Shown: positions 144-19,593 of the stretch, piece by piece | Layout of the letters: each line of letters starts with the position of its first letter | Numbering within the stretch: the first letter of the stretch is position 1 | From: Sedimentisphaerales bacterium | Lineage (GTDB): Bacteria > Planctomycetota > Phycisphaerae > Sedimentisphaerales > SM23-30 | Reading direction: 5' to 3' (one strand) | Length of the DNA stretch: 64,000 bases | Assembly (NCBI GenBank): GCA_963666285.1 | Contig: OY762711.1 | The notes under the pieces: generated by a model | Databases searched by the model: none | The model's input: only the letters and a program-made list of their open reading frames with translations | Told to the model about the DNA's origin: nothing | Position numbers and translations under genes: made by a program

Positions 144-162
144 TTCTTAACTCCTATAATTA

Positions 163-1917: not shown

Positions 1918-1928
1918 ATAACCCCCTA

Positions 1929-3080: not shown

Positions 3081-5039
3081 ATGTTTTATATCACATTGCC
3101 AAAGAAGCTCCATAAAGCCAGCCAAGTTGTTATATATAAATGGCTTACAGGAGTTGGAGAGAAGATTGAAAAGGGACAAACGCTTTGCGTGGTCCATATC
3201 GGTCAGGAATTATTTGAGATCCAATCAGACATATCAGGCTGCCTTTTGAAGCAAACGGCACCGGCTGGCGGCGTTATTTCAGGTGTCGAGCCGGTTGCAG
3301 TAGTCGGAGAAAAAGGCGAAGACGTATCGATATTGGACAAAAACAGCGATATCAATACTGAAAACAAGGCTGAAAACGCAAAACAGGAAGTAATAGAGAG
3401 TAAAACAGAAACACAATCTGCCCAAGCAACCACAGCGGGAGTCGATAAAATGAGTTCAGAAAGTACAAGCTCAGCAGCGCAAGGTGAAGTTATCCCTATA
3501 CTGATGCCTCAAGCAGGTCAGAGTATGGAAGAAGGAACGATAGTAGCGTGGAAAGTAGCGGAAGGCGACCGAATAGAGGTTGGGCAGATAATCATGGAAA
3601 TCGAGACAGACAAAGCAGTTATGGAAGTAGAAGCTGCGGATGCCGGTCTAGTAGCCAAGATAATAAGCAAAGAAGGCGATATAGTCGAGGTTAAGCAGCC
3701 GGTCGCATTTCTGGCAGAAGAAGGCGTTGACCTGAGCTCTTATACAGGTGTAACAGCAACAAGCGAAGCACCAGCAACAAGCGAAGCACCAGCGGCCAGC
3801 AACGGCGCTACCGCGGCGGCGAACGAAGCCCCTGCGGCGATGCCGGAAGGAGTAACGCCGATTCTGATGCCGCAAGCGGGTCAGAGTATGGAAGAGGGAA
3901 CGATTGTAGCCTGGAAAGTAGCAGAAGGCGACCGCATAGAAGTCGGCCAGGTTATAATGGAAATCGAGACAGATAAAGCAGTTATGGAAGTAGAAGCTGT
4001 TGATGCGGGCCGGGTTGCGAAGATTGTGAGCCAGGAAGGTGATATAGTTGAGGTAAAAGAGCCGGTTGCATACCTGGCAGAAGAAGGCGTAGACGTTGAC
4101 GGCTATATCGCGGCGAGCAGCGGCGGTGCAGCAGGCGTCCAGCCGAGCAGCAGCCACCAGCAAGCGAACAAAGGAAGCGTCGCGTCGGCCAACGGCGAGC
4201 TGAAACAATCGAAATCGCCCGCGCAGCGCACTGAGACGGGTCGCGTCAAGGCCTCGCCGGCCGCGCGGAAGGCAGCTGCCGATGCAGGCATCAACCTGTC
4301 ATCGATCAGTGCCGGGTCCGGGCCGGGTGGTCGCATCCTGTCAACGGATGTAAAAAATGCCAAAATCATCCCATCTGAAGAGGTGGTCATACCACTTACC
4401 AAGATGCGTCGAGCAATTGCCAAGAACCTTCAATATTCGAAACAGACAGTACCACATTTCTATATGAAAGGTACTATTGATGCCGCTAAATTATTTGACA
4501 CTTATAAAGCGACTAAAGAAGAGTTCAAATGCTCAGTGAATGATTTTGTTACCATGGCATGTGCCAAGGCAATACGTCAGTACCCGGCATTCAGGAGTCA
4601 GTATATCGACGACCAGATAGTTGAGAAACCACTGGTGAATATCGGTATAGCGGTTGGAACTGATGACGGGCTGACCGTGCCGGTAGTATGCGATATTGAC
4701 AGGATGACACTAGAGAGATTGGCAGCCAGAACTCGTGAGGTAGTGGAATCGGCACGTAACGGCAAGATGGAAGGTGTCGGCCAGGGCATATTTACAATTA
4801 CGAACCTAGGCATGTTCGGCACAGAAGAATTTTCAGCGATAATCAATCCGCCGGAAGCCGCTATCCTGGCAGTCGGCGCGATTCGTGAAGATATAATAGT
4901 TAAAAACGGTGCGATTATGCCGACACGTGTGATGACAATGACGCTGAGCGTTGACCATAGAGTAATTGACGGCGTATTGGCGGCCCAGTTTATGAATACG
5001 CTTAAAGAGACATTAGAGAATCCAGAAAAGCTCCTATAA
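3081..5039 (+). CDS. dihydrolipoamide acyltransferase (E2) with one degenerate and two intact lipoyl domains
   Basis: two ETDKA lipoyl motifs; ASPAARK...GSGPGGRI E3-binding domain; catalytic DHRVIDG. Confidence 0.95.
   Translation: MFYITLPKKLHKASQVVIYKWLTGVGEKIEKGQTLCVVHIGQELFEIQSDISGCLLKQTAPAGGVISGVEPVAVVGEKGEDVSILDKNSDINTENKAENAKQEVIESKTETQSAQATTAGVDKMSSESTSSAAQGEVIPILMPQAGQSMEEGTIVAWKVAEGDRIEVGQIIMEIETDKAVMEVEAADAGLVAKIISKEGDIVEVKQPVAFLAEEGVDLSSYTGVTATSEAPATSEAPAASNGATAAANEAPAAMPEGVTPILMPQAGQSMEEGTIVAWKVAEGDRIEVGQVIMEIETDKAVMEVEAVDAGRVAKIVSQEGDIVEVKEPVAYLAEEGVDVDGYIAASSGGAAGVQPSSSHQQANKGSVASANGELKQSKSPAQRTETGRVKASPAARKAAADAGINLSSISAGSGPGGRILSTDVKNAKIIPSEEVVIPLTKMRRAIAKNLQYSKQTVPHFYMKGTIDAAKLFDTYKATKEEFKCSVNDFVTMACAKAIRQYPAFRSQYIDDQIVEKPLVNIGIAVGTDDGLTVPVVCDIDRMTLERLAARTREVVESARNGKMEGVGQGIFTITNLGMFGTEEFSAIINPPEAAILAVGAIREDIIVKNGAIMPTRVMTMTLSVDHRVIDGVLAAQFMNTLKETLENPEKLL
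3493..4090 (+). repeat. intragenic duplication of the lipoyl domain (about 3493-3730 and 3856-4090) with an 18-bp tandem repeat (ATSEAP x2, 3754-3793) in the linker
   Basis: near-identical PILMPQAGQSMEEGTIVAWKVAEGDRIEVGQ...ETDKAVMEVEA coding blocks. Confidence 0.9.
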
Positions 5040-5048
5040 TAGCTTTTC

Positions 5049-5112
5049 TAAAAGAGTAAATTGTAAAATAAAAAGTGTAAAGAAGGTGTCCAGCACCGTA
5101 CGGTACAGGACC
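5049..5112 (+). repeat. intergenic heptamer-array/hairpin module A, copy 1
   Basis: taaaagagtaaattgtaaaataaaaagtgtaaagaaggtgtc...gacc; matches 8121, 9878 and 17766. Confidence 0.9.
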
Positions 5113-5120
5113 TTATTTTA

Positions 5121-5238
5121 ATCGGCTGACGCCGAAATAATTTGAACCACTGATACTGAATTAACGCAGAAAAATAACATTAAAAAGAAGACCGCGTGGG
5201 TACTCCTCAGCAAAAGCTTCGGAATTTACCCACCCTAC
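5121..5238 (-). repeat. about 120-bp intergenic repeat ending in a GTAG REP-like hairpin, copy 1
   Basis: atcggctgacg(c/g)cgaaataatttgaac...ctgaattaacgcaga...gcgtgggtactcc...aatttacccaccctac; duplicated at 6721-6844. Confidence 0.9.
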
Positions 5239-5251
5239 AGATGGACTAAAA

Positions 5252-6679
5252 ATGGCAGAACATTATGATATAGCAGTACTCGGAGCGGGACCTGGCGGAT
5301 ATGTGGCAGCGTTGAAAGCAGCACAGATGGGTGCCAAGGTTGCGATAGTAGAGAAACATCATTTCGGCGGCACATGCCTGAACTACGGGTGTATCCCGTC
5401 GAAGGCTTTGCTGGCCTCTGCTGAGATGCTGTATAAGATCCATGACTGCAAATCGCTGGAGATAACAGTCGATGGTAAAGTAAGTTTCGATTGGGATAAG
5501 ATCCAGAAGCGTAAGAATAAAGTTCTGACTAAGCTTCGAGGTGGTATTAAGGGGTTGCTTACAGCTCGCAAGGTTAAGCAGTATGCCGGAAAGGCGGTAC
5601 TGGACGGTGTTGGTAAGGTAAACGTTATCGGCGAGAAAGGTACAGAATCATTTACTGCTGAAAAGATAATCCTGGCGGTAGGTTCTACCCCGGCCCGGAT
5701 ACCAGGCTGGCCGACAAAGCCTGATCTGGTATGCACTTCGGACGAAGCGCTGCACTGGAAAGAGCTGCCGAAGAAGCTGCTGATAGTAGGCGGCGGTGTA
5801 ATCGGTTGTGAGTTTGCGTGCATGATGCACGAATATGGTGTTGAGGTGACGATAGTTGAGCTGATGGATAGCCTGCTGCCAGAGATGGAAAGATCGCTGG
5901 GTGAGACACTGGGCGATGTTTTCCGGAAACGTGGGATGAAGATTTATACCGGTGTAAAGGTTGAGAGCCTGACCGAGGATAAAGGCGGGATAAAAGCCGT
6001 ATTGTCCGGTGATGAAAAACTTGAAGTTCATAAAGTACTGGTTGCTACCGGTAGAAGACCGGCGACCGGCGAGATCGGGCTGGAGACTATCGGGCTGGAG
6101 GCCGAGCGAGGTTTTATAAAAGTTAATGATAAAATGGAGACCGCGGTAAAGGGCTATTACTGTATTGGTGACGCGAACGGTCGATGCCTGCTGGCTCATG
6201 CTGCCAGTGCCCAGGGAGAGGTAGCAGTTGAAAATGCACTTGGCCATGATAAGGCACAGACCAGGCCGATACCAGGTGCGGTATATACGTTCCCTGAGAT
6301 AGCGTCGGTTGGGCTGACAACAAAACAGGCTAAAGAGCGAAATATTCCGATCGCGGTCGGCGAGTTTCCGATTGGATATCTCGGTAAGGCGATGGCGGTT
6401 GGCGAAGAGTTCGGGTTTGTCCGGGTGATCCGCAGCCTGGAAGATGATACGCTGCTGGGCGTACATATGATCGGACATAACGCAACTGAGATAATAGAGA
6501 GTGCCGCGGCGATGCTGACACTTAAGGCGAAGGCGAGCGAGTTGGGCGAGATGATATTTGCCCATCCGACAATATCGGAAGCAGTGAAGGAAGCAGCTGA
6601 AGATTCGTTTGAGAAGGCACTGCATATGCCGCCGAGGAAAATAACAACATTAGTTGCAGATTCAAATAAAGTTGGATAA
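5252..6679 (+). CDS. lpdA: dihydrolipoyl dehydrogenase (E3)
   Basis: GAGPGGY, GGTCLNYGCIPSK, HPTISE. Confidence 0.97.
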   Translation: MAEHYDIAVLGAGPGGYVAALKAAQMGAKVAIVEKHHFGGTCLNYGCIPSKALLASAEMLYKIHDCKSLEITVDGKVSFDWDKIQKRKNKVLTKLRGGIKGLLTARKVKQYAGKAVLDGVGKVNVIGEKGTESFTAEKIILAVGSTPARIPGWPTKPDLVCTSDEALHWKELPKKLLIVGGGVIGCEFACMMHEYGVEVTIVELMDSLLPEMERSLGETLGDVFRKRGMKIYTGVKVESLTEDKGGIKAVLSGDEKLEVHKVLVATGRRPATGEIGLETIGLEAERGFIKVNDKMETAVKGYYCIGDANGRCLLAHAASAQGEVAVENALGHDKAQTRPIPGAVYTFPEIASVGLTTKQAKERNIPIAVGEFPIGYLGKAMAVGEEFGFVRVIRSLEDDTLLGVHMIGHNATEIIESAAAMLTLKAKASELGEMIFAHPTISEAVKEAAEDSFEKALHMPPRKITTLVADSNKVG

Positions 6680-6681
6680 GG

Positions 6682-6713
6682 CATAAGGGAAGGATTTGCC
6701 TTACGGCAAAACT
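6682..6713 (+). repeat. intergenic module C, copy 1
   Basis: cataagggaagga followed by hairpin tttgcc-ttac-ggcaaa; similar to 11723-11753. Confidence 0.7.
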
Positions 6714-6720
6714 AATTTAT

Positions 6721-6844
6721 ATCGGCTGACGGCGAAATAATTTGAACGACAAATAAGACACTGAATTAACGCAGATAAAATAATACAAAAAAGATGACAG
6801 CGTGGGTACTCCGCAAACGAGTCTGCGAAATTTACCCACCCTAC
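6721..6844 (-). repeat. about 120-bp intergenic repeat ending in a GTAG REP-like hairpin, copy 2
   Basis: aligns with 5121-5238. Confidence 0.9.
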
Positions 6845-6860
6845 AAAAGGAAAAAGATAG

Positions 6861-8123
6861 ATGGCTGGAACTGAATCTACAAACGGATTCTTAAAGAATA
6901 TTGGGTCAACCGAAGCAATCAAGGCAGAGGCGGGAAATAGCCCGGCCCTGGCAAAGCCTATCGTATCTAACAGTCATATCCATATCCCGCCGAACTTTTC
7001 AGCGTTTGAAACAATCGGTCAGGCGGTTGAGCTGGCGGCGAATGAAGGGATCAATGTTTTGGGGACCGGTAACTATTATGACTTTTCGGTCTATAAAGGG
7101 TTTGCCGATGAATGCCTGGCGAAGAATATCTTTCCGCTGTTCAGTACTGAGATAATCGCGTTGGAGAAAGAGCTGCAGGCGGAAAATATCCGGGTGAACG
7201 ATCCGGGTAACCCTGGTAAATATTATATCTGCGGTAAGAGTATAACGAAATTTGAAGAGTTTACGCCGAGAGCGGCTGAGCTTAACAAGCGGATCCGTGA
7301 TAATGACGCCCTGCGTATGACAGAGATGGCTGCGAAGATGGCGGACTATTTTGCCGGGTTCGGGGTTGATACCAAGCTGGACGATCAGGCGGTAATAGCA
7401 CGAGTTGTGAAACGGCATAACTGCAAGCCTGAAACGGTGACCCTGCAGGAGCGGCATCTGGCACAGGCGTTTCAGGAAGTGTTCTTTGAGCTGGTCGATG
7501 CCGATAGCAGAGCAGCTAAACTGGCAGAGATATTTGGTACCGAACCTAAAGCTGACATTAATGATGCGGTTGGAATCCAGAATGAGATCCGGTCGTATCT
7601 GATGAAGGCCGGTAAGCCATGCTTCGTGGAAGAGTCGTTTGTGACACTGGCCGAAGCGCAGGAATATATCGAAGAGCTGGGCGGGATATCATGTTACCCG
7701 ACGCTGGCGGACGGGTCTAAGGTACCGTGCGAGTATGAAACGCCGGTTGAAAATCTGATCGATACACTAAAGAAGAGTAATTTCCCGATGCTGGAGTTCA
7801 TCCCGAACCGTAATACGCCGGAGGTACTGGAGCAGTATGTAACAGCGGTTCGTAATGCAGGGCTGGTAGTGATAGCCGGGACCGAACATAATACACTGGC
7901 ACTGGACCCGCTTGAACCGAAATGTGTGGGCGGAAAAGATATCCCGGCTAAGGTTCAGGAGATCTTCCATGAAGGTATCTGCGTGCTGGCGGCTCATCAG
8001 TTTTTGTGTGCGAACGGCGAAGCAGGGTTTCCGCAGAGATATAAAGACGCATCGGATAAAGAAAGCGTGATCGAAGAGTTCAGAAAGATAGGAACTGTAG
8101 TTTTGAACAGAAATAACATTTAA
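6861..8123 (+). CDS. PHP-domain (metal-dependent phosphoesterase fold) protein
   Basis: N-terminal NSHIH, STE and C-terminal GTEHN metal-ligand pattern. Confidence 0.7.
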   Translation: MAGTESTNGFLKNIGSTEAIKAEAGNSPALAKPIVSNSHIHIPPNFSAFETIGQAVELAANEGINVLGTGNYYDFSVYKGFADECLAKNIFPLFSTEIIALEKELQAENIRVNDPGNPGKYYICGKSITKFEEFTPRAAELNKRIRDNDALRMTEMAAKMADYFAGFGVDTKLDDQAVIARVVKRHNCKPETVTLQERHLAQAFQEVFFELVDADSRAAKLAEIFGTEPKADINDAVGIQNEIRSYLMKAGKPCFVEESFVTLAEAQEYIEELGGISCYPTLADGSKVPCEYETPVENLIDTLKKSNFPMLEFIPNRNTPEVLEQYVTAVRNAGLVVIAGTEHNTLALDPLEPKCVGGKDIPAKVQEIFHEGICVLAAHQFLCANGEAGFPQRYKDASDKESVIEEFRKIGTVVLNRNNI

Positions 8124-8194
8124 AAGAGTAAAGTGTAAAATAAAAAGTGTAAAGAAGGTGTCGCTAGCGCGACCTTGTTTTAAAGCTGACGCAA
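8121..8194 (+). repeat. module A, copy 2 (left flank of the four-helix-bundle gene)
   Basis: taaaagagtaaagtgtaaaataaaaagtgtaaagaaggtgtcgctagcgcgacc...gctgacgcaa then ATG. Confidence 0.9.
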
Positions 8195-8557
8195 ATGGAA
8201 AAACTATCCGACAGGACAAAAGAATTTGCAATTAGAATTATAAAATTATGCCAGGTAATAGATTCCAAACCTGGCATAGGAAAGCTGCTATGTAAACAAT
8301 TGCTTCGATCTGGTACATCAATTGGAGCAAATATTGCTGAAAGTGAAGGAGCACAAAGCGATGCTGACTATCTGACAAAATGCAGCATTGCCGTAAAAGA
8401 AGCTCGAGAGACCCAATATTGGCTTGACCTTCTAATACAGTCAGAAATAATAAATGAGAACAGACCAAAAGATATTAAACAAGAAAGCGACGAAATAGTT
8501 GCTATCTTAACTACTATTTGTAAGAAAATGAAAGATAAGCATAACGCTAAAGTGTAA
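8195..8557 (+). CDS. four-helix-bundle protein (23S rRNA IVS protein / TIGR02436 family, Avd-like fold)
   Basis: RTKEFAIRII...QLLRSGTSIGANIAE...AVKEARETQYWLDLL signature. Confidence 0.93.
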   Translation: MEKLSDRTKEFAIRIIKLCQVIDSKPGIGKLLCKQLLRSGTSIGANIAESEGAQSDADYLTKCSIAVKEARETQYWLDLLIQSEIINENRPKDIKQESDEIVAILTTICKKMKDKHNAKV

Positions 8558-8632
8558 AGAAGGTATAATGCCGCGGAGCGGCAAGTGAAGAGAAGAACTA
8601 AGAGCGAAGAGTTGCGGTGTTGCTTCGCGACC
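8549..8632 (+). repeat. right flank of the four-helix-bundle gene: 16-bp direct repeat plus module B
   Basis: aaagtgtaaagaaggt (8549-8564, identical to 8144-8159); agtgaagagaagaactaagagcgaagagttgcggtgttgcttcgcgacc matches 9821-9872. Confidence 0.88.
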
Positions 8633-8709
8633 AAATTTTATCGCTCACATGTGTTCGCGAATAAATAAGAATAAAAGATTAACGCAAAACAGGATTTGAA
8701 AGATTAAAG

Positions 8710-9795
8710 ATGGCAGATGTAACAGATAAAATAAATATAATATCGCCGATGCTAAGAGGGCTGCTGGCGAAAGATGATATACGGCCTGTGATCAGTTTTG
8801 TTGAAGCAGCTGACTGCAAATGCAGCGGAGTAAAAGTATCTATCAGCGATTACGATGAAGCTAAGGTACTGGAGGCCCTGGCCGGAGCGGTACAAGGTAA
8901 AGATGCAGAATGTGTCGAGGTTGAAGGTGTCGGCTGCTTTAATGTGAAATATCCCGAACCGGACCCTGTTAAACGGGTATGCGGCAAGGTAGCGATTGTG
9001 ACCGGTGCGGCGCAAGGGTTTGGGCTTGAGATAGCACAGGATCTGGTCGGACAGGGAGCGTATGTGGTGCTGGCGGACCTTAATATCGAAGCGGCAGAAA
9101 ACGAAGCGAAACTGCTGCAGGAAAAGTTCGGCGCTGATAATGCATATGCTATAAAGATGAATGTGACCGATCTGGTATCGATAAAGGAAGCGATATCAAC
9201 TGTCGTGAAGAGATACGGCGGGTTTGATGTGTTTGTCTCTAATGCCGGTGTGCTGAAGGCTGAAAGTGTGAAGACACAGCCGGAGAAGGATTTCGATTTT
9301 GTTACGGCGGTAAACTATAAAGGCTATTTTCTGACGACCCAGGTGGTATCGCAGATATTGAGCCGCCAGAATAAAGCTAACCGGTCGCTCTATAGCGATA
9401 TTATCCAGATAAACTCCAAGAGCGGGCTGGTCGGTTCTAACAGGAACGGAGCTTATGCCGGCGGCAAGTTCGGCGGGATCGGGTTGACCCAGTCGTTTGC
9501 GTTGGAATTGATCGATGACGGGATAAAAGTTAACTCGATCTGTCCTGGTAATTTCTTTGATGGGCCGCTCTGGTCTGAGCCTACGAACGGGCTGTTTGCC
9601 CAGTATCTGAGGACGGGTAAGGTGCCAGGTGCCAAGACAATCGAAGATGTAAAACATTTTTATGAAGAAAAGGTGCCGATGAAACGCGGGTGTACGACCG
9701 CTGATGTGATGAAGGCGGTGTATTACCTGATCGAACAGAAATATGAAACCGGGCAGGCAGTACCTGTTACCGGCGGACAAGTAATGTTAAATTAA
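8710..9795 (+). CDS. SDR oxidoreductase, sorbitol-6-phosphate 2-dehydrogenase (SrlD/SorD)-like, with about 90-aa N-terminal extension
   Basis: TGAAQGFG, NAG, IIQINSKSG...YAGGKFGGIGLTQSFALEL. Confidence 0.85.
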   Translation: MADVTDKINIISPMLRGLLAKDDIRPVISFVEAADCKCSGVKVSISDYDEAKVLEALAGAVQGKDAECVEVEGVGCFNVKYPEPDPVKRVCGKVAIVTGAAQGFGLEIAQDLVGQGAYVVLADLNIEAAENEAKLLQEKFGADNAYAIKMNVTDLVSIKEAISTVVKRYGGFDVFVSNAGVLKAESVKTQPEKDFDFVTAVNYKGYFLTTQVVSQILSRQNKANRSLYSDIIQINSKSGLVGSNRNGAYAGGKFGGIGLTQSFALELIDDGIKVNSICPGNFFDGPLWSEPTNGLFAQYLRTGKVPGAKTIEDVKHFYEEKVPMKRGCTTADVMKAVYYLIEQKYETGQAVPVTGGQVMLN

Positions 9796-9820
9796 AAAAC
9801 AACAGTTTTTTAATTTAACA

Positions 9821-9983
9821 AGTGAAGAACTAAGAGTGAAGAGTGAAGAGTTGCGGTGTCGCTGACGCGACCTTAAATAAAGTATAAAGTGTAAAATAAA
9901 AAGTGTAAAGATGGTGTTCGCTAACGCTCACAACTTAAATTTAGAGCAAACGCGACGTTATTTTTAATCGGCTAAAGCCGATA
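9821..9983 (+). repeat. composite intergenic repeat: module B, module A and a mini-hairpin
   Basis: (agtgaag)n ttgcggtgtcgctgacgcgacc; aaagtataaagtgtaaaataaaaagtgtaaagatggtgt; atcggctaaagccgat. Confidence 0.88.
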
Positions 9984-10045
9984 ATGTCGAGCTCCCGAAA
10001 ATCGGGATTACATTCGGCTCGGCGTTCCCAGGAAGGAATAGGACA

Positions 10046-11713
10046 ATGGAAAATACAATACCAGCAAACCAGCAGGCAATCCAGCTTGTAGGTGAAGATA
10101 AACTGATACATAATACCGATAAGCCGGTTGATAAGCCGGGCCCGTACCAGATACTGCTGAAAGTTGAGGCACTGGGTTTATGTTTCTCTGACCTGAAACT
10201 GCTCAAGCAGTTCAATAACCATGTGCGTAAGAGCGAGATACTGTCTGGAATTGACCCGGCAGTCTTGAAAGAACTGCCGAGCTATAAGCCGGGGACAGAG
10301 CCGGTTGTGCCGGGCCATGAGGCGTATGGTGTAATTGTCGCGGTCGGTGATAAGGTAACCCATCATAAAGCGGGTGAAAAGGTACTGGTCCAGACAGACT
10401 ATCGCTGGCTGAAGACAAAGAACTCCAACTCTGCGTTCGGGTATAATATCGAAGGCGGGCTGCAGCAGTATGTGATACTGGACGAGCGAGTGATAATTGA
10501 GCCTGACAGCGGCGAAAGTTTCCTGATACCGGTTGATAAGGATATCAGTGCAGCGTCTATCGCACTGGTGGAGCCCTGGGCGTGTGTGGAAAGCTCTTAT
10601 ATAACCGAAGAGCGTAATACATTAAAGCCGGGCGGACGGCTGCTGGTAGTGAAGGATGAGGGAAAGAGTATAAGCGGGATCGCGGCGAGCTTATCAGATA
10701 AAGGTGAGCCGGCGGAAGTTACTACATTCGGAGTTAACAGCGACCTGGCGGATATTGAAACTGACGCTAAAGAAGCGGCGAGCCTGGCTGAGCTGCCAGC
10801 TGAATATTATGACGATATTATCTATTTCGGTTCTGATAAAGCGACAATCGAGCTGCTGGATGAAAAGCTGGCGGCCCAGGGTATAATCAATATCGTACTT
10901 TGCGGTGACAAGATCGGTGAAGAAGTATCGGTTGGTGTCGGCCGCACTCATTACGGTATGACACGCTGGATCGGAACGGTCGGATGTGATGCGTGTGAAA
11001 GCTATAAGACAGTGCCGGCGATGGGCGAGATACGACCGAATGATAAGGTCCTTATTATCGGAGCTGCCGGACCGATGGGGCAGATGCATGTTATCCGGGT
11101 ATTGTCGCTGGAGACCGAGAACCTGACCGTAGTTGGAACTGACTTTGACGATGAGCGGATCGAATCGCTGGCAGCGAAAGCCGAGCCGCTGGCGAAACAG
11201 AATAATGTGAAGTTGTCGCTGGTCAATCCTAAAAACAATCCTGTGACTGACAAGTTCAGCTACTTTGCGATAATGGCACCGGTTGGACCACTGGTCGCAC
11301 AGGCGATTAAGGACAGCAGCGAAGGTGCTTTAATAAATATCTTTGCGGGTATCCCGGCGACGGTTAAGCAGGAGATAGACCTGGACCTTTATATTGCCAA
11401 TAAGTGCTTCATGTTTGGTACGAGCGGATCGCGCTTGTCTGATATGAAGATCGTACTGGAGAAAGTTTTGACCGGTAAGCTGAATACTAATTGTTCGGTG
11501 GATGCGATATCCGGTATAGCCGGTGCGATTGACGGTATCCGAGCGGTAGAAGCACGAGCGCTGGCAGGTAAGATAATCGTGTTCCCGCAGAAGCCTGATA
11601 TGCCGCTGACACCGCTGACCGAACTGGCAGAGAAGATGCCGGAAGTGGCCGCGAAGCTGGATAACGGGCTGTGGACAAAAGAAGCGGAAGAAGAGTTGCT
11701 AAAGCAGGGATAA
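10046..11713 (+). CDS. Zn-dependent MDR oxidoreductase, L-sorbose-1-phosphate reductase (SorE)-like, extended
   Basis: GLCFSD and PGHE Zn motifs, LVEPWACV, GAAGPMG, GTSGS. Confidence 0.8.
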   Translation: MENTIPANQQAIQLVGEDKLIHNTDKPVDKPGPYQILLKVEALGLCFSDLKLLKQFNNHVRKSEILSGIDPAVLKELPSYKPGTEPVVPGHEAYGVIVAVGDKVTHHKAGEKVLVQTDYRWLKTKNSNSAFGYNIEGGLQQYVILDERVIIEPDSGESFLIPVDKDISAASIALVEPWACVESSYITEERNTLKPGGRLLVVKDEGKSISGIAASLSDKGEPAEVTTFGVNSDLADIETDAKEAASLAELPAEYYDDIIYFGSDKATIELLDEKLAAQGIINIVLCGDKIGEEVSVGVGRTHYGMTRWIGTVGCDACESYKTVPAMGEIRPNDKVLIIGAAGPMGQMHVIRVLSLETENLTVVGTDFDDERIESLAAKAEPLAKQNNVKLSLVNPKNNPVTDKFSYFAIMAPVGPLVAQAIKDSSEGALINIFAGIPATVKQEIDLDLYIANKCFMFGTSGSRLSDMKIVLEKVLTGKLNTNCSVDAISGIAGAIDGIRAVEARALAGKIIVFPQKPDMPLTPLTELAEKMPEVAAKLDNGLWTKEAEEELLKQG

Positions 11714-11722
11714 GTGATATGT

Positions 11723-11753
11723 CATAAGGGAAGGAAACGCCTGCGGCGAAACT
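11723..11753 (+). repeat. intergenic module C, copy 2
   Basis: cataagggaagga followed by cgcc-tgc-ggcg hairpin and aaact. Confidence 0.7.
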
Positions 11754-11792
11754 TATAATAAAAAACAATAAGTAGGAAAACGGAAACGGATT

Positions 11793-12857
11793 ATGGAAAT
11801 ATTGCAGATAATAACCGAATTGTCGCACGAGTTTGGTACAAGTGACTATGTACGCGGCGGCGGTGGTAATACATCATGTAAGAGTACTGAAACACTGTGG
11901 GTAAAACCATCCGGTACAACGCTGGCCGGGTTGAAGCCCGAACTATTTGTTGCACTTGACCGTGAGAATCTGGGCGGGCTGTATAAGGTAGAGACACCGA
12001 CAGAGCCGGCTGAGAGAGAAGTACTGGTAAAGGATATAATGGCAAACGCGGTAATGCTGGGCAGTAAAGGTCGTGCATCGGTTGAAGCACCGCTGCATGA
12101 TTCGCTGAGTGCGACTTATGTTGTACATACGCATCCATATTTAGTTAACGGTATGACCTGCGGAAAAGAAGGTAAGGCCAAATGCAAAGAGCTGTTTCCA
12201 GATGCGCTGTGGCTGGACTATATCGACCCGGGCTATACGCTGTGTATGTTTGTTCGTGAAGAGATCAAGAAATATGCCGAGGCGAACGGCCAGGAGCCGA
12301 AGATGATCTTTTTGAAGAATCATGGCGTCTTTGTCGCCGGTGATACAGCAGATGAAGTTCGCGGAATCTATAAGACGATTATTGATACGCTAACGAATTA
12401 CTACGATGAAAAAGGGATTACAGCCGAACTGGCAGTTGAGCCGGACCCGGACGATGACGCAGTTGACCAGGTTGGGCTGAAGCTGGCAGAATGTTTGAGC
12501 GATGAGACTGTCGCAGTTGCGGCATGCGGGATGTTTGACTATCCGCAAGGACCGATTACGCCGGACCATATAGTATATGCGAAGTCTTATCCGTTTGTCG
12601 GCGAGCCGAGTGAGGAAGCGATTAATGAGTTCAAAGCCAAACATGGATACGAGCCAAAGATAGTAGTCTGCTCGGATGCCGTATTTGGTATCGGGCCGAC
12701 AGAGACCAAGGCGGCTCTGGCACTGGAGCTGGCTATTGATGGAGCAATTGTTTTGAAACTAGCGGAAGCTTTTGGCGGAATTGATCTTATGACGGACCAG
12801 GCACGTGAATTTATCGAAAACTGGGAAGTTGAATCTTACCGAAGCAAACAGATCTAA
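11793..12857 (+). CDS. class II aldolase/adducin family protein (RhaD-like N-terminal half of aldolase-SDR fusions)
   Basis: GGGGNTS, KPSG, SVEAPLH, VHTHP, LKNHG, TPDH, WEVESYR. Confidence 0.88.
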   Translation: MEILQIITELSHEFGTSDYVRGGGGNTSCKSTETLWVKPSGTTLAGLKPELFVALDRENLGGLYKVETPTEPAEREVLVKDIMANAVMLGSKGRASVEAPLHDSLSATYVVHTHPYLVNGMTCGKEGKAKCKELFPDALWLDYIDPGYTLCMFVREEIKKYAEANGQEPKMIFLKNHGVFVAGDTADEVRGIYKTIIDTLTNYYDEKGITAELAVEPDPDDDAVDQVGLKLAECLSDETVAVAACGMFDYPQGPITPDHIVYAKSYPFVGEPSEEAINEFKAKHGYEPKIVVCSDAVFGIGPTETKAALALELAIDGAIVLKLAEAFGGIDLMTDQAREFIENWEVESYRSKQI

Positions 12858-13185
12858 GTGAAAATCTTTTGGTGCCCCGATGTACATCGGGAGCTATTAA
12901 TATAGTTTGCGTAAAAGGCAATATAAATAGAAGTAAGAATAACTACTATCTATAGTAGTGCAAAACCGGGCATCAAGCCCTAATTATCAATAACAATCGA
13001 ATACGGAATTTAATTAAATCAGCAGGAGATATTGCGGTTTTTCCTGCTGCGCGTATATTTTAACACCGGTAGTGTTCATATTCGGACCACTGCTTTTTAA
13101 CCTTTACAGAGTACATATATAGAATATAATAAAACGTAAATCTATCCGAATTGTATCTTGTAATAAAAATGAAAGGGTAATTGCT

Positions 13186-14652
13186 ATGAGCGAAAAGCAT
13201 GCATATGCAGCTGTTGACCTTGGGGCTGAGAGCGGCCGCGTGGTCAAGGGCATCCTGAGTAACGGGAAACTAGAACTGGAAGAGATCAACAGGTTCAAAA
13301 ACGGACTTGTCCCTATCGATGGTCACGATCACTGGAACCTGATCAGGTTGTACGAGAATATGATCGAGGCGTTTAAGATCTGTGCCAAGAGCGACGTGCC
13401 AATCGAAAGTATTGGTGTGGATTCCTGGGGAGTGGACTTTGCCCTGATGGCTGAGGATAATGCCCTGATGGGATTGCCGGTGGCTTACCGTGACAGCCGA
13501 ACCGACGGGATGATGGAGAAGCTGTTTGAGAAGATGCCTAAGGATAAGGTTTACGAGAAGACCGGAATCCAGTTTATGAAGTTTAACTCTGTTTACCAGC
13601 TGTTTTCACTTACCCAGGCGAATAAGTCATGGATGGATAAGGTGACAGACTTTCTTATGGTGCCGGACTATTTTCATTTTCTGTTTACCGGTAAAAAGAC
13701 CAATGAATACACAAACGCATCTACCACCCAGCTGCTGAACGTTGAGACAGGTACATGGGACACAGAGCTGCTGGAGACTATTGGTATTAATCCTTCGATA
13801 TTCAAAGAGCTGATCAAGCCGGGAACAAAGATCGGACCGATCACCGAGCAACTTCAGCAGGCGACAGGACTGGGACCGGTTCCGGTGATTGCCCCTGGTA
13901 CGCATGATACTGCATCGGCAGTTGCGGCTGTACCGGCGGAAGGCGGCAAATGGGCATATATAAGCTCAGGCACCTGGTCGCTGATGGGTATTGAAGCCGA
14001 TAAGCCAAACAGCACGCAGAAAGCCTTTGGATATAACTTCACAAATGAAGGCGGCGTATTTAATACGATCAGATTTTTGAAGAATATCATGGGACTGTGG
14101 CTGGTGCAGAGATGCAGGGCTGCATTTGACAAGGAGATCGACTATGGTACACTGACACAGATGGCGGCAGATGCCCCGGCGTTTGTAAGCCTGGTGGATC
14201 CGGATTGCGATGCGTTTATGAACCCTGCATCAATGACAGATGCGATAGATGAATTCTGTAAGAAGACCGGTCAGCCGGTGCCTGCGTCGGAAGGTGCATA
14301 TGTACGCTGCTGCCTGGAGAGCCTGGCACTGCAGTATCGACTGGTACTGGATATGCTGGGTGATGTATATGAAACCGATTTCGATAAGATTAATATCGTT
14401 GGCGGCGGCACCCAGAATAAACTGCTGAACCAGTTTACTGCTGATGCATGTAACGCGGAAGTTGTGACCGGTCCGATTGAAGCTACAATAATCGGAAATG
14501 TGATCATGCAGGCTATCGGAATGGGGCATATCAAGGACCTGAGCGAAGGGCGTCAGATAATACGCAACTCGTTCGAGATGGAGACATTTAAGCCTGGTAA
14601 TGCCGCGGCATGGGACGAGCAATACGAACGGTTTAAGAAGTTGAAAAAATAG
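13186..14652 (+). CDS. rhaB: rhamnulokinase
   Basis: AVDLGAESGR, GVDSWGVD, HDTASA, YISSGTWS, FTNEGG. Confidence 0.95.
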   Translation: MSEKHAYAAVDLGAESGRVVKGILSNGKLELEEINRFKNGLVPIDGHDHWNLIRLYENMIEAFKICAKSDVPIESIGVDSWGVDFALMAEDNALMGLPVAYRDSRTDGMMEKLFEKMPKDKVYEKTGIQFMKFNSVYQLFSLTQANKSWMDKVTDFLMVPDYFHFLFTGKKTNEYTNASTTQLLNVETGTWDTELLETIGINPSIFKELIKPGTKIGPITEQLQQATGLGPVPVIAPGTHDTASAVAAVPAEGGKWAYISSGTWSLMGIEADKPNSTQKAFGYNFTNEGGVFNTIRFLKNIMGLWLVQRCRAAFDKEIDYGTLTQMAADAPAFVSLVDPDCDAFMNPASMTDAIDEFCKKTGQPVPASEGAYVRCCLESLALQYRLVLDMLGDVYETDFDKINIVGGGTQNKLLNQFTADACNAEVVTGPIEATIIGNVIMQAIGMGHIKDLSEGRQIIRNSFEMETFKPGNAAAWDEQYERFKKLKK

Positions 14653-14684
14653 TTAGCGGTTAGCAGAAAGCATAGCTGTTTATT

Positions 14685-15077
14685 ATGAATCATGTTGGAA
14701 AGAAATTATGGGTTGTGCCGGACGGATATATACCGGCATTAACTGACAACGACAAGGATAACGTTAACGGATATCTGTCACACGAATGCGCGTGCATACT
14801 GAATTGCGGGCCTGGTGATGCCGAGATAGAGCTGACAGTCTATTTTGAAGATTGTGAACCGGTTGTGATCGGCGGCATAGTAGTGCCGGCGAGGCGCAGT
14901 TCGCACCTCAGAATGGACGAGCTGGAAATCGACGGTAAAGCCGCGATACCACGAGCGAAACCCTATTCGCTGGTGGTGAAGAGCAGTACGGCGGTGGTGG
15001 TGCAGATGTCCAGATTGGATACAACACAAACAAATATGGCATTTTTATCAACAATGGCTATACCATATGACATTTAA
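14685..15077 (+). CDS. ASRT (sensory rhodopsin transducer) family protein
   Basis: GKKLWVVPDGYIP...SHECACILN...YFED...VVVQMSRLDTTQ signature. Confidence 0.85.
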   Translation: MNHVGKKLWVVPDGYIPALTDNDKDNVNGYLSHECACILNCGPGDAEIELTVYFEDCEPVVIGGIVVPARRSSHLRMDELEIDGKAAIPRAKPYSLVVKSSTAVVVQMSRLDTTQTNMAFLSTMAIPYDI

Positions 15078-15100
15078 TAAGAAATAATGGAGAATCTAGT

Positions 15101-16366
15101 ATGTCAAAGAATATTGAACAAGCTTACGAAATTGCAAAAGAAAAGTATGCAGCGATCGGAATTGATACCGAAGCGGCGATGAAGAAACTTGAGACCGTGC
15201 CAGTGTCAATTAATTGCTGGCAGGGAGACGATGTGGGCGGTTACGAACACGTGGGCGGCGCAGAGCTGACCGGCGGTATCCAGACGACCGGAAACTACCC
15301 GGGTAAGGCTCGCACAATAGATGAGCTTCGCAGCGATATCGAAAAAGCCATAAGCCTGATACCTGGCAACCATCGATTGAACCTTCATTCATGCTACCTG
15401 GATAATGGCGGCAAGTTTATCGATCGTAACGAGATGGAGCCCAGCCATTTCCAGAGCTGGATAGACTGGGGTAAGGGCAAGCTTCACGGGATGGACTTTA
15501 ACCCGACCTATTTCTCACACGATAAAGCCGGTGACGGTTTTACCTTGAGCCATCCGGACAAGGGAATCCGCGATTTCTGGATCGAGCATGGTATTGCATG
15601 CCGAAAGATCGGTGCGGAAATGGGTAAACAGTTCGGTACAACAACAGTAACAAACTACTGGATGCCGGATTCATATAAAGATACACCGGCTGACCGTGTT
15701 GCACCTCGCGAACGTATGGCCGATTCGCTGGACAAGATTTTTGTTGAAGATATCGATCCGAAGCTGCACCTGGATGCGGTTGAATCAAAACTGTTTGGTA
15801 TCGGCGGCGAAAGCTATACTGTAGGATCGCACGAATTCTTTATGGGTTATGCGGTATCACGTCAGAAGGTACTATGTCTGGACGCGGGTCACTACCATCC
15901 AACAGAAATGATCTCAGAAAAGATTTCATCTGTAATGATGTTCTGCCCGGAACTACTGCTACATGTAAGCCGTCCAGTTCGTTGGGACAGCGACCACGTA
16001 GTATGTTTCGATGACGAACTACAGCAGATTGCCAAAGAGCTGGTCCGCAGCGGCAAGCTGGAAAAGGTACATATCGGACTGGACTTCTTTGACGCCTCTA
16101 TCAACCGTGTAGCGGCATGGGTAATCGGTACCCGTAATATGGTTAAGGCAATGCTCTTTGCCATGCTGGAGCCAACCGAAACTCTGCGTAAGATTGAACT
16201 GGAAATGAACTATACCGAGCGACTGGTAATATTCGAAGAATTGAAGACAATGCCTTGGGCAGCTGTATGGGATTACTACTGCATGAAACAGGGAGCTCCT
16301 GTCGGCCTGGACTGGTTCAAGGTTGTTAAGCAGTATGAAAAAGAAGTTCTGTCCAAACGCGGCTAA
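15101..16366 (+). CDS. rhaA: L-rhamnose isomerase
   Basis: CWQGDDV, DFNPT, DAVESKLFGIG, HVSRPVRWDSDH. Confidence 0.97.
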   Translation: MSKNIEQAYEIAKEKYAAIGIDTEAAMKKLETVPVSINCWQGDDVGGYEHVGGAELTGGIQTTGNYPGKARTIDELRSDIEKAISLIPGNHRLNLHSCYLDNGGKFIDRNEMEPSHFQSWIDWGKGKLHGMDFNPTYFSHDKAGDGFTLSHPDKGIRDFWIEHGIACRKIGAEMGKQFGTTTVTNYWMPDSYKDTPADRVAPRERMADSLDKIFVEDIDPKLHLDAVESKLFGIGGESYTVGSHEFFMGYAVSRQKVLCLDAGHYHPTEMISEKISSVMMFCPELLLHVSRPVRWDSDHVVCFDDELQQIAKELVRSGKLEKVHIGLDFFDASINRVAAWVIGTRNMVKAMLFAMLEPTETLRKIELEMNYTERLVIFEELKTMPWAAVWDYYCMKQGAPVGLDWFKVVKQYEKEVLSKRG

Positions 16367-16398
16367 TTACTAGCTGATTTTTCAAAAAAGTCAATATT

Positions 16399-16437
16399 GC
16401 ACGGATGTTTGGATATCATCTGAACGTCCGTGCTTTT
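16399..16437 (+). terminator. intrinsic terminator after rhaA
   Basis: gcacggatgtttgga...tctgaacgtccgtgc then tttt. Confidence 0.7.
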
Positions 16438-16517
16438 GTCGTATCATAAGCGATGTGTCAGGGGGACTGGATCACAGCCCTGAATACGAAATTCTACTTC
16501 ACAATCAGGAGATTATT

Positions 16518-17765
16518 ATGGATCTTAACATTCTTGCAGAAGCAAATCCGACTGTAGGTATAATTATTTTTATGCTCGGCGGTCTGGCCGGAGCAGTATT
16601 TTATACTCCTCTGAAAAAGGTAAAAGACTGGGCCTGGGAAAGCTACTGGATGATCTATGCAGTGTTTGCCTTGCTAATTGTACCCATTGTGCTGGCATTT
16701 ATTGTATCGCCCAATTTCATATCAGTAATCAAAGCATCACCAAAAGAAGAAGTCATAAAATGCTTTATATGCGGAGCAGCATGGGGCATCGGCGGTCTGA
16801 CCTGGGGACTAATGATCCGCTTTCTCGGATTTGGCCTGGGCCTGGCGTTAGGTTGCGGTATCTGTTCAGCAGCAGGAACATTTCTGCCACCAATAATAAA
16901 AGGTGGAGAAGATTTGAATAAATTATTCACAACAAATGGCGGTAAAATATCAGTCTTAAGTGCGATCATATCAGTTGCCGGTATAGTATTTGTTGGCATG
17001 GCAGGTATGAGTAAAGAAAATGAACTGCCGGAAGAAGAAAAGAAAAAGGCAGTTGCAGAATTTAATTTCAAAAAAGGCATTATCGCTGTTTTATTTTCAG
17101 GCTTGATGAGTTCGGCAATGAGTATCGGCCTGCAAGGCGGACCAACAATTGAATCGTTGGCAAAGACCACTGAGCCAGTGACAAATATCGCCTGGGCCGG
17201 AATACCTGTATTAGTAGTTGTATTACTAGGCGGTTTTATTATTAATGCCGGATGGTGCCTGATATTAAATATCAAAAATAAGACAACCGGCGACTACGTA
17301 AAGAGCAGCTCACCGATTTTACCGAATCTTATTTTTGCCGCTATTGCCGGTGCTATCTGGTGTTCACAGTTTATCTGCTTTAAGACAGGTGAGCCACAGA
17401 TGGGCGATACAGCTTATATAGGCTGGGCAGTACTAATGGCAAGTTCAATTCTATTCAGCCAGGTAATAGGCATGTTCTTTGGCGAATGGAAAGGCGTAAG
17501 TAAAAAGACAATGCAGCTGCTTGTCATTGGCTTAATTCTACTAATCGTTTCAGCAGTAGTTGCCGGTTACAGCGGAAAAGTCGCAAAAGATGAAGCTGCA
17601 AAAGTTGAAAGTGCTGCTGCCGGTCAGTTAGAAAAGACAGATGAACCTGCCCCGGTTATGCCGGCGAAGAAACTCACGCCTGCGGTAAAAACAGATGAAG
17701 CTGCCGGGGCAGTAGAAGAAGCAGTTGAAAAGGTCGAAGAAGCTGCCGAGGATATGAAGCAGTAG
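16518..17765 (+). CDS. rhaT: L-rhamnose/H+ symporter with a charged C-terminal tail
   Basis: FYTPLKKVKDWAWESYW, WGIGGLTWG, GEWKG; start moved to the ATG after CAGGAG. Confidence 0.92.
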   Translation: MDLNILAEANPTVGIIIFMLGGLAGAVFYTPLKKVKDWAWESYWMIYAVFALLIVPIVLAFIVSPNFISVIKASPKEEVIKCFICGAAWGIGGLTWGLMIRFLGFGLGLALGCGICSAAGTFLPPIIKGGEDLNKLFTTNGGKISVLSAIISVAGIVFVGMAGMSKENELPEEEKKKAVAEFNFKKGIIAVLFSGLMSSAMSIGLQGGPTIESLAKTTEPVTNIAWAGIPVLVVVLLGGFIINAGWCLILNIKNKTTGDYVKSSSPILPNLIFAAIAGAIWCSQFICFKTGEPQMGDTAYIGWAVLMASSILFSQVIGMFFGEWKGVSKKTMQLLVIGLILLIVSAVVAGYSGKVAKDEAAKVESAAAGQLEKTDEPAPVMPAKKLTPAVKTDEAAGAVEEAVEKVEEAAEDMKQ

Positions 17766-17844
17766 AAGTGTAAAGTGTAAAATTAAAAGTGTAAAGAAGG
17801 TGTCGCTTGCGCGACCTGATTTTTAAGGCTAACGCAAGATGTAA
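17766..17844 (+). repeat. module A copy matching the left flank of the four-helix-bundle gene but with no gene
   Basis: aagtgtaaagtgtaaaattaaaagtgtaaagaaggtgtcgcttgcgcgacctgatttttaaggctaacgcaag-ATG-TAA. Confidence 0.9.
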
Positions 17845-17863
17845 CTTTCATTTAGTATATTAT

Positions 17864-17899
17864 GATTAGTCTCTGCGATCAGGTAGAGACTAATCTTTT
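17864..17899 (+). terminator. intrinsic terminator after rhaT
   Basis: gattagtctct...agagactaatc then tttt. Confidence 0.75.
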
Positions 17900-18051
17900 C
17901 TGTAACTGTTCACATAGCTACAGTTATAAGTAACAAGATATAAGCGTTGTTAATGAATTTATAATACTGTAATCATTAACTCTTTTCTTTATTTTCTAAT
18001 CGAATTGCGTCATTTTAATCAAAGTCGGATAATATTCAGGGTGGATATAAT

Positions 18052-19593
18052 ATGTCAGATCAGAACGAAAAAACATCACATGGAAATGAATACGAGCGAG
18101 AGCCGGTCCCGGAAAAGGCACTGTTGGGCTTTAAGAGTTTTGTTGGCATGTATGCAGGCGAGCATTGTGCCGGAACAGAGCTGATGATCGGTCCGCTGTT
18201 TGTGGCGGCGGGAGTAAGTGCGTTTGATATTGTCGCGGGACTGCTGATAGGCAACCTGCTGGCGGTACTAAGCTGGATGCTGTTTTGTGCACCAATCGCC
18301 ACCCGCACCCGGCTGACATTATACTACCAGGCAGAGAAGATCTGCGGCCGCCACCTGGTAACGATCTACAACCTGGCAAATGGTGTGATGTTTACTATAC
18401 TTGCCGGTGCGATGATCATGGTGGCAACAACAGCATTTGGCCAATGGTTTAAGCTTCCGATGCCTGGCCTGAACGATATGTACCCCAATAGTGCAGTCTG
18501 GATAATAGCGGTTTTGTTAGTTGGCTCTGTAATTTCACTGGTAGCCAGCTGCGGTTATAAGATGGTATCGAATATCGCCAATATGGCGGCCCCATGGCTG
18601 GTTTTAATGTTCATTGTGTGTGGAATAATTGCGCTGGGCGAATTTATCAAGGTATCGGGCCGTGAGGTTAATTCGGCGACCGATCTGTGGGAGCTGGCAG
18701 ATAAGGTAATCTGGCGAGGCGGAAAGCCATTTCCCGGTCAGGTTAAATTTTCTTTCTGGCATGTAATGTTCTTTGCGTGGTTCTGCAACATGGCATGGCA
18801 TATAGGTATGAGTGATTTAACGATATTTCGCTTTGCGAGGAGGTCATGGTACGGTGCCGCATCGGCGACTGGAATGTACCTGGGCCATTTCATCGCATGG
18901 CTGGCAGCCGGTATGCTGTATTCGCTGCAGATGTACAAGATCGACCTGCAGCCTGCTGAGCTTGATGCGCTGAGGGAAGCAGGAATCCTGGCAAAACTGC
19001 AAAGTCAGGAGATGATCCTGACAGCAGATACAATCCGGGAATTAATAGCAACCGGCGTATTGAAGAGCCCCCCTGCCGTATTGCCGGGCCCGATGACATA
19101 TTCAGCTGTTGGAGTAGCAGGCCTGATATGTGTAATCATGGCAAGCTGGACAACCGCGAACCCGACAATATACCGGGCCGGACTGGCATTCCAGGCAATC
19201 ATGCCAAGATTTTCACGATTTAAGGTCACCTTTGTAATAGGTCTGATAGCAACACTGACAGGTATGTTTCCGGCAGTTGCGATGCAGCTGCTCGACTTTG
19301 TCGCATTATGGGGATTGATCTTAATGCCTATGGGAGCGATAATCTTTGTAGATTTCTGGCTGTTCAAAAAGCTGGGACTTAAGAGTAACTATGCCGAGCT
19401 GAGTAAGAAACATTTCAACATAGCGGCCGGACTGGCATGGCTAATATCGGTATCAATCTGTTTCTGGCTGGCCTATACCGGCAAAGTACAGATATATTTC
19501 GTTTCGCTGCCCGGCTGGTTCTTAACAACCATACTATACATATCGATAAGCATGTTCTACCAGAAAAGGAAACTCGAAAATGAAAACAATTAG
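18052..19593 (+). CDS. NCS1 / purine-cytosine permease-like transporter
   Basis: about 12 TM segments; EYEREPVP, GEHCAGTE, WTTANPTIYRAGLA. Confidence 0.75.
   Translation: MSDQNEKTSHGNEYEREPVPEKALLGFKSFVGMYAGEHCAGTELMIGPLFVAAGVSAFDIVAGLLIGNLLAVLSWMLFCAPIATRTRLTLYYQAEKICGRHLVTIYNLANGVMFTILAGAMIMVATTAFGQWFKLPMPGLNDMYPNSAVWIIAVLLVGSVISLVASCGYKMVSNIANMAAPWLVLMFIVCGIIALGEFIKVSGREVNSATDLWELADKVIWRGGKPFPGQVKFSFWHVMFFAWFCNMAWHIGMSDLTIFRFARRSWYGAASATGMYLGHFIAWLAAGMLYSLQMYKIDLQPAELDALREAGILAKLQSQEMILTADTIRELIATGVLKSPPAVLPGPMTYSAVGVAGLICVIMASWTTANPTIYRAGLAFQAIMPRFSRFKVTFVIGLIATLTGMFPAVAMQLLDFVALWGLILMPMGAIIFVDFWLFKKLGLKSNYAELSKKHFNIAAGLAWLISVSICFWLAYTGKVQIYFVSLPGWFLTTILYISISMFYQKRKLENENN

Follow-up and report, generated by a model that had tools for sequence, protein, structure and literature searches.

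Heptamer-hairpin repeats of a Sedimentisphaerales bacterium share the orientation of one-sided G-gain domains in its chromosome

Why should the spacers of a bacterial operon carry a patchwork of short repeats and small hairpins that all face one way? The locus that raises this question is a rhamnose operon of a Sedimentisphaerales bacterium (GCA_963666285.1, contig OY762711.1; genome G000 below), contained in a window of 64,000 nucleotides that corresponds to C1:5088001-5152000, C1 being the chromosome of the 6.35-Mb assembly. An original prediction, made from the window's sequence, had described modules that join arrays of seven-nucleotide words to mini-hairpins, and had taken them for a single-stranded DNA or RNA signal recognised by a protein. 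The repeat family is real and is a polarised variant of a widespread kind, and the orientation of its members tracks regional DNA strand polarity rather than transcription. The novel part is a set of polar domains, each enriched in G on one strand; the 7-mer arrays, the hairpins and the associated protein are variants of known things.

A motif-rule search found 222 intergenic copies in the genome, so the signal is not tied to the rhamnose operon, and the statement that no modules occur beyond 18 kb holds only inside the window. Genes for this genome-wide work came from our own open reading frame caller (4212 genes, 83% coding), which reproduced the genes of the window. Each unit consists of a purine-rich 7-mer array (one of at least six words), the sequence GGTGT, a variable small hairpin and a T/A tract, often followed by a second hairpin; about 50 islands, up to a few kilobases each, chain many units. 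Spacers hold 281 period-7 arrays, against 18-19 in three resamples, and their most enriched hairpin classes are GNA/TNC (174 versus 17) and GNNA/TNNC (116 versus 12), roughly tenfold. A loop-agnostic intergenic search for GGTGTYGC-N3/4-GCRAC returned 63 hairpins with stems of 4-6 bp, whose opposite strand reads G..A in 53 and ends in A in 61 (GAA 11, GTA 10, GCA 10, GTAA 7, GTTA 5 and others). These figures bear out the idea of a conserved, strand-specific hairpin with a variable loop centre. The exact word of module A sets this genome apart, with 68 copies where each of 40 relatives has 0-6, and the junction hairpin occurs 65 times in G000, 49 in G006, 30 in G015, 28 in G001, 18 in G016 and 0-7 times in the other 36 relatives. 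Closer comparisons rest on sampled sequence from four relatives, G001, G003, G006 and G015; together with G000 they are five genomes of one family and not independent tests. The proposed G..A loop is borne out in 53 of the 63 hairpins here, but G001 keeps the terminal 3' loop A in 28 of 28 listed hairpins and G in only 15, so the invariant is N..A, with G preferred.

Adjacent modules within one spacer are co-oriented in all 37 pairs, and arrays less than 700 nt apart are co-oriented in 108 of 108 pairs in G000 and five of five in G006; in G001 15 of 18 such pairs face each other, as do two of three in G003 and the one pair in G015. This count covered 820 kb of G001, 420 kb of G003, 669 kb of G006 and 625 kb of G015, with some overlap in G001 and G015. 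Having no facing pairs, and hence no terminal inverted repeats, the modules are not miniature inverted-repeat transposable elements; orthologous spacers are too diverged for a comparison of target-site duplications. Constant orientation, as first claimed, holds within the window but not relative to genes elsewhere: in co-directional spacers 112 of 151 modules are sense and 39 antisense. Likewise, most window copies do start at a stop codon, but over the whole genome the median distance from a junction back to the nearest same-strand stop is 271 nt, and no more than 36 of 147 junctions have such a stop less than about 70 nt away.

What the orientation does follow is the sign of the G-C skew at fourfold degenerate sites of flanking genes, in 203 of 222 modules. 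The match persists for antisense modules (35/39), in convergent (33/35) and divergent (35/36) spacers and on the lagging strand (85/95). With the effects of gene strand and replichore removed, agreement holds at 146 of 166 anchors; 200 circular shifts gave 83 +/- 7.6 with a maximum of 101. Since orientation follows strand polarity and not transcription, a role at the DNA level is favoured over one at the RNA level. The hairpins could instead be terminators, signals for RNA processing or stability, or starts of long transcripts, with the skew produced by transcription or by selection on RNA composition; the majority of sense modules (112/151) would fit, as would four window hairpins that score as weak terminator-like sites and the translational regulation proposed for TAACTGA heptamers in the available part of PMC4679880. 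But the 35 of 39 antisense modules follow skew and not genes, the sense strand is not rich in G for genes that lie outside domains, antisense genes make up 63 of the 90 downstream pairings in G006, and terminator-like sites are near chance (14 versus 11.1 +/- 3.2). We consider this explanation improbable.

Segmentation without any repeat information divides out 102 domains, with a median of 25.5 kb, that cover 46% of C1. No module lies in a domain of opposite sign: 166 lie in one of their own sign and 56 in none. The first fifth of a domain holds 82 of those 166 modules and 25 of 32 islands. Among the 81 domains of at least 12 kb, an island lies within 5 kb of the start in 30 and of the end in 1, a module is near the start in 48 and near the end in 12, and none contains an opposite module. 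For modules that come first in a run the skew is about 0 at 5-20 kb upstream, climbs in the final 5 kb before the module, holds a level of +0.16 to +0.19 through the next 20 kb of the array strand and has halved to +0.08 at 30-40 kb; downstream of islands it is positive in 48 of 50 cases. Skew grows with the net count of upstream modules (Spearman 0.55, the genes not being independent of one another). Of 26 facing module pairs none lies within 12 kb, against 7 of 25 back-to-back pairs. We also considered divergent island pairs 4-9 kb apart as the ends of one mobile element and rejected this, the genes between seven pairs being unrelated. Other repeat families share the domain polarity, and when all purine-skewed 7-mer arrays are placed on the segmentation 139 run with their domain, 2 against it and 64 lie outside. 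When intergenic 9-mers were ranked de novo by how sharp an oriented step they mark, island words came out at the top of both rankings. Gene-to-gene autocorrelation of skew at lag 5 is 0.35-0.56 in 13 blocks of the chromosome; in contigs C2-C4, with only 35-38 genes each, no domains were seen.

The domains differ in kind from replication skew. Relative to genes far from modules, genes on the array strand have gained G (+0.10) and lost T (-0.09) at fourfold sites; twofold A/G sites gain G (+0.10), twofold C/T sites are unchanged, and genes on the other strand mirror the pattern. Replication in this genome enriches the leading strand in G and T, so that a gain of G with a loss of T points to a different process. 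Replication-associated skew was rejected on this ground and because the profile is alike for modules on leading and lagging strands; nor does the replichore determine orientation, only about 127 of 222 modules (counted from a 100-kb table) lying on the leading strand. Domains might yet be segments, inverted or imported not long ago, in which an old replication skew persists and the repeats are oriented by the former fork direction, and they are indeed segment-like, with an array strand that is G-rich like a leading strand. But genes run on the leading strand in the same proportion in anti-replichore and pro-replichore domains (446/730 and 1011/1666, both 61%), which excludes inversions; in addition the replichore signature (G and T) is not that of the domains, the skew decays with distance, and operon order is kept in G001 and G003. 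This explanation is largely refuted already, and we find it scarcely credible. The direction of change is visible in the repeats as well: private substitutions among island copies number 50 to G and 28 to C (4.9 versus 2.1 per kb, about 2.4-fold, for the first of six overlapping references), and five of the six references agree while the smallest does not. Copies of insertion sequence (IS) elements and introns, with only 105 changes and partly made of module-like repeats, lean weakly the same way (25 to G, 12 to C). Base composition alone cannot tell which strand is miscopied.

A more extreme form of the same skew occurs in G006, which belongs to another genus and is 83% complete (45 of about 420 contigs sampled, 25 picked because they hold modules and 20 not picked for them). 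Module-downstream gene pairings agree in 86 of 90 cases. Skew at fourfold sites reaches 0.9-1.0 at loci L173-L217, with sign flips within contigs; G stands at 0.72 and C at 0.09, against 0.37 and 0.36 in neutral genes (one contig of 43% GC left out), and usage of Glu, Gly, His, Pro and Gln shifts by strand. G015 has moderate matching skew, uncorrected for replichore, and a lag-5 autocorrelation of 0.29 (five contigs), while the sampled parts of the two congeners with facing arms, G001 and G003, are without domain skew (0.07 over 320 kb and 0.03 over 400 kb). One-sided G-gain domains on a chromosome-wide scale are thus well supported in G000 and G006 and more weakly in G015.

The features of the window can be read against this background.

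1..27556, plus strand: polar G-gain domain that holds every module of the original prediction; its start by segmentation lies about 1.6 kb before the window
5049..5134, plus strand: module A, with an AAAGTGT-type array, GGTGT, a long hairpin variant (5085-5112), a T/A tract and a second hairpin (5123-5134)
5194..5238, minus strand: GTAG-tagged hairpin like those of repetitive extragenic palindromes (REP), its GTAG end on the G..A-loop strand
6675..6734, plus strand: module C, with an ATAAGG(C/G) array, GAAGGA, a hairpin (6695-6710) and a second hairpin (6723-6734)
6800..6844, minus strand: second GTAG-tagged REP-like hairpin
8121..8192, plus strand: module A immediately 5' of the four-helix-bundle gene; hairpin 8157-8173
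8195..8557, plus strand: four-helix-bundle gene (TIGR02436, PF05635), above both profile cut-offs
8549..8631, plus strand: short direct A arm with a hairpin (8569-8583), then module B (AGTGAAG array, hairpin 8616-8631)
9821..9931, plus strand: module B (hairpin 9855-9871) with a tandem module A behind it (hairpin variant 9913-9931)
9986..10031, plus strand: nested palindrome from one more polarised family of repeats, with GGCGTTCCCAG at its end
11710..11748, plus strand: module C, hairpin 11738-11748
12856..12891, plus strand: degenerate module with a CCCGATGTACATCGGG hairpin
14652..14664, plus strand: GTTAGC array of two units that overlaps the rhaB stop; six such pairs in the genome
17763..17835, plus strand: module A behind rhaT; hairpin 17799-17815

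The modules first described are where they were placed (A at 5049, 8121, 8549, 9877 and 17763-66; B at 8584 and 9821; C at 6682 and 11723; the GTTAGC pair at 14652), and all seven bottom-strand loop readings proved correct. That A and B end in the same hairpin is exact only at 8157, 9855 and 17799; 5085, 8616 and 9913 carry variants and 8549 lacks it. Overlooked at first were the TIGR02436 gene, the two GTAG-type hairpins, the module at 12856-12891, the palindrome at 9986-10031 and the enclosing skew domain, whose limits lie near -1.6 kb and 27.6 kb. Inside it, five genes of the operon have G 0.41 and C 0.15 at fourfold sites, against 0.24/0.25 for the orthologues in G001 and 0.21/0.29 in G003. 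DNA folding of eight stretches of the window gave z-scores of -1.5 to -3.2, with an energy set that may not model sheared G-A loops, and Rfam gave 0 matches at E<=1 in positions 1-25000. Contigs from two runs of one sample showed 0 differences over the covered stretches and broke only at repeats, so the repeat region is not an assembly artefact, although the assembly may have been built from that very sample. No within-strain polymorphism that could be used came from these contigs, and the direction of change could not be assigned to the differences in the low-depth run.

How might such domains arise? The repeats and their polarity, the domains with their asymmetry and gain of G, and the avoidance of facing pairs up to 12 kb are direct observations. 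From them we infer that the repeats initiate the tract, and we give about an even chance to the proposal that the hairpin modules load a one-way, strand-specific re-synthesis of DNA. The modules, and above all the roughly 50 larger islands, would be the loading sites of a one-directional, strand-specific DNA transaction that begins no more than a few kilobases from the hairpins and covers about 25 kb of the purine-rich strand in the 5' to 3' direction. In its likeliest form this would be repeated re-synthesis of the purine-rich strand, begun at a nick or a primer, with the N..A-loop strand as template and a bias to insert G; the identity of the newly made strand, like any role of the four-helix-bundle protein described below, belongs to this conditional part of the account. 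New repeat copies, REP-like hairpins and IS elements that target the repeats would then be laid down in the polarity of the tract. The hairpin strand would be read outward from the islands, a template geometry that is also that of single-strand priming signals. The target hairpins of diversity-generating retroelements (DGRs), as the available part of PMC3240598 describes them, share it. Our confidence falls a little short of even for the broader claim that this is an undescribed process of some planctomycete lineages, in which hairpin-heptamer repeats provide many oriented starts from which one strand is rewritten processively, and with biased errors, for tens of kilobases.

The likeness to DGR targets invites a more specific reading, in which a four-helix-bundle protein and a reverse transcriptase would use the G..A hairpins as targets and rewrite adjacent DNA. 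In phage DGRs the target depends on a GC-rich hairpin, its loop reading 5'-GRNA, that follows the variable region, and it functions whichever way replication passes through it (PMC3240598); the modules have GC-rich stems, G..A loops and independence of replication direction, the altered DNA lies 5' of the loop strand in both, and two full group II-type reverse transcriptase genes lie in islands of G000. But a DGR target needs a stem of 7-10 bp, a 4-nt GRNA loop and adenine-only mutagenesis, whereas here stems are 4-6 bp, loops have 3 or 4 nt, copies number in the hundreds, tracts reach about 25 kb, and changes go beyond adenine. DGR errors fall only at template adenines, according to the accessible text of PMC12875486, while G is here gained from T, A and C, and no reverse transcriptase was found in G006 (83% complete). 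Membership among DGR targets was rejected, and we hold a DGR-like process to be very unlikely.

Several observations weigh against re-synthesis loaded by the modules. Of six enzyme families compared across the genomes (Y-family polymerase, RNase H, Y1 transposase, reverse transcriptase, MutY and MutS), none has a distribution that follows the effect. RNase H, Y1 and MutS occur in all five genomes; the Y-family polymerase is present in G000, G001, G003 and G015 and was not found in G006; reverse transcriptase was not found in G001 or G006. No MutY exceeds the family cut-off in any of the five, with only weak partial hits in G000, G001, G003 and G015, and the idea of fixation by MutY was dropped. 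At 33 of the 81 large domains no module lies 5 kb or less from the start, a number that falls to 29 when a wider set of repeats is counted. The skew ramp starts 2.5-5 kb upstream of islands, and the window's own domain starts about 6.7 kb ahead of its first module. Near-identical and probably young modules already lie in a downstream skew of 0.24 (12 copies), against 0.19-0.27 for diverged ones (Spearman -0.04), so that a new copy seems to take on a polarity already present and not to create one. Around 22 module loci of G001 there is no matching skew, uncorrected for replichore, which means that a module alone is not sufficient. In G006 upstream pairings agree as well (69/87), and the base most lost is C, unlike T in G000.

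Taken together, young copies in full skew, a ramp that precedes the repeats, domain starts without modules and the G001 loci suggest that the repeats may be passengers. Some other oriented signal or process would then expose one strand over about 25 kb, and arms, hairpins, REP-like and IS elements would enter or survive in one orientation only and pile up where exposure is greatest. That several unrelated repeat families have the same polarity fits this account, as does the behaviour of IS200/IS605 elements, which work on a single strand and favour the template of the lagging strand (PMC3333891). On the other side stand the island words, which top the de novo scan (coding DNA lay outside it), and the 25 of 32 islands in the first fifth of a domain. 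We regard this as a possible but rather unlikely account. Under either it or module-loaded re-synthesis, the small modules of the rhamnose operon are probably followers. A regional strand-specific process exists whichever way cause runs, and we could match it to no described one.

The gene at 8195-8557 brings in a protein family. It scores 97.6 bits against TIGR02436 (cut-off 24) and 78.4 against PF05635 (cut-off 33.8), and the closest solved structure to its product is 2rld (E 2.4e-25); the family presumably has an Avd-like fold. G000 has 10 four-helix-bundle genes, and arrays adjoin 8 of them (judged by eye), in keeping with the suggested association between modules and such genes; no GxxExxY gene scored above cut-off in G000. 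The family is that of the intervening sequence (IVS) cassettes of 23S ribosomal RNA, which the module loci resemble also in the arm type upstream of the gene and in sporadic insertion into operons; no four-helix-bundle gene was seen in this operon of G001 and G003, whose spacers hold other arrays. Here, in contrast, arms are direct or solo, there is no long enclosing hairpin, and the site is not in ribosomal RNA. At 80 loci of relatives of the window protein the arms are inverted in 64, direct in 3, both in 1, neither in 10, and 2 were too short; at the 10 genes of G000 none is inverted (best inverted match 11-13 of 18 nt), and the sole four-helix-bundle gene of G006 has direct arms. Membership among IVS-like cassettes was rejected, with no inverted arms for one long hairpin at the 10 genes and 108 of 108 close array pairs co-oriented. 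The reading to which we give about an even chance takes the modules for solo, polarised forms of the 7-mer arm and hairpin that bracket four-helix-bundle genes in many bacteria. At C1 45310-46100 two tandem four-helix-bundle genes and the start of a third have direct 14-mer arrays between them.

Other known repeats are close to parts of this system. Cyanobacterial short tandemly repeated repetitive (STRR) sequences are 7-mer arrays, and small dispersed repeats (SDR) are small hairpins embedded in such arrays. Intergenic heptamers, TAACTGA in Beggiatoaceae (PMC4679880) and GGGNATC in Xanthomonas and Nostoc (PMC4692102), likewise form short 7-mer arrays, many near gene ends, with lineage-specific words; here six or more words, any of which can replace another, lead into a common junction and hairpin, and orientation follows regional strand skew, a feature absent from the available portions of those descriptions. 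Bacterial interspersed mosaic elements (BIME) and REP with their associated tyrosine transposases (RAYT) are, in the accessible parts of PMC3333891 and PMC1525189, dispersed, strand-specific intergenic hairpin mosaics that serve as IS targets, and the modules resemble them in all of this, down to a few GTAG-tagged hairpins. Membership was rejected: modules A-C have no 5' GTAG tag on the main hairpin, and units never alternate in orientation (37/37 pairs co-oriented). The GTAG-tagged hairpins are a separate small family with four full copies in the genome. Of five Y1 hits in G000 three have flanks without modules and the other two match one of these in score and length; the longest, in a 255-codon frame, has no module repeats within 500-600 nt on each side.

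Modules serve as IS insertion targets, as REP and BIME do. An element that we take to be IS3-like occupies 13 sites of C1 (e.g., 422898, 781473, 3047324); 11 of its 13 left ends lie directly behind a 7-mer array, several inside the GGTGT junction, and all nine copies in domains point with the domain. A second, presumably IS110-like, element has nine sites (e.g., 909037, 4653017), and in every case it is inserted after one particular word from a family of 10-mer repeats. A pair of almost identical group II-type introns that carry reverse transcriptase, at C1 910.7-912.7 and 5395.3-5397.3 kb, sit directly behind AATTAAG/AATTATG arrays. Elsewhere in C1, about 28 kb of phage-like genes at 967-997 kb belong to a segment present in two copies of 88-94% identity.

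The operon itself, at 3081-17765, comprises genes for pyruvate dehydrogenase E2 and lipoamide dehydrogenase, three sugar enzymes, rhaB, rhaA and rhaT, in an order kept in G001 and G003. Its head, at 3081-6679, is an E2-like gene with an internal 244-nt duplication followed by the lipoamide dehydrogenase gene, again in identical order in those two genomes. Between rhaB and rhaA lies a PF07100 gene (sensory rhodopsin transducer family; 14685-15077), and upstream of deoR, at about 2735-2755, a degenerate TCTTATA run is possibly a relic arm of the opposite orientation.

For the domains the nearest physical analogues are break-repair hotspots that reach about 60 kb (PMC3607216) and the footprint of DNA polymerase I behind the ColE1 origin (PMC3167613), which share with them decay from a fixed site; local mutation footprints and replication GC skew share strand asymmetry. 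As far as the accessible parts of those reports go, the footprints are experimental or about 1 kb long, and GC skew spans whole replichores, whereas here there are about 100 natural, one-sided G-gain domains over 46% of a chromosome. No report of such polar domains was found in the searched literature, which did not cover subscription papers.

Strand skew in bacteria is usually credited to replication and transcription. Here we meet a third, local and one-sided skew over nearly half a chromosome, with a direction that small repeats reveal. This matters for origin prediction, for analyses of codon usage and selection, and for genomes with irregular GC skew. For the puzzle of heptamer arrays and four-helix-bundle genes it yields an expectation: genomes with direct arms should have domains, and genomes with facing arms should not. 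If re-synthesis loaded by the modules is the correct account, heptamer arrays would be its cis sites and four-helix-bundle proteins a candidate factor; the process would decide which way repeats and IS elements that insert later point, and would shift amino-acid composition in G006; and the chromosome would be divided into polar mutational domains independent of replication and transcription.

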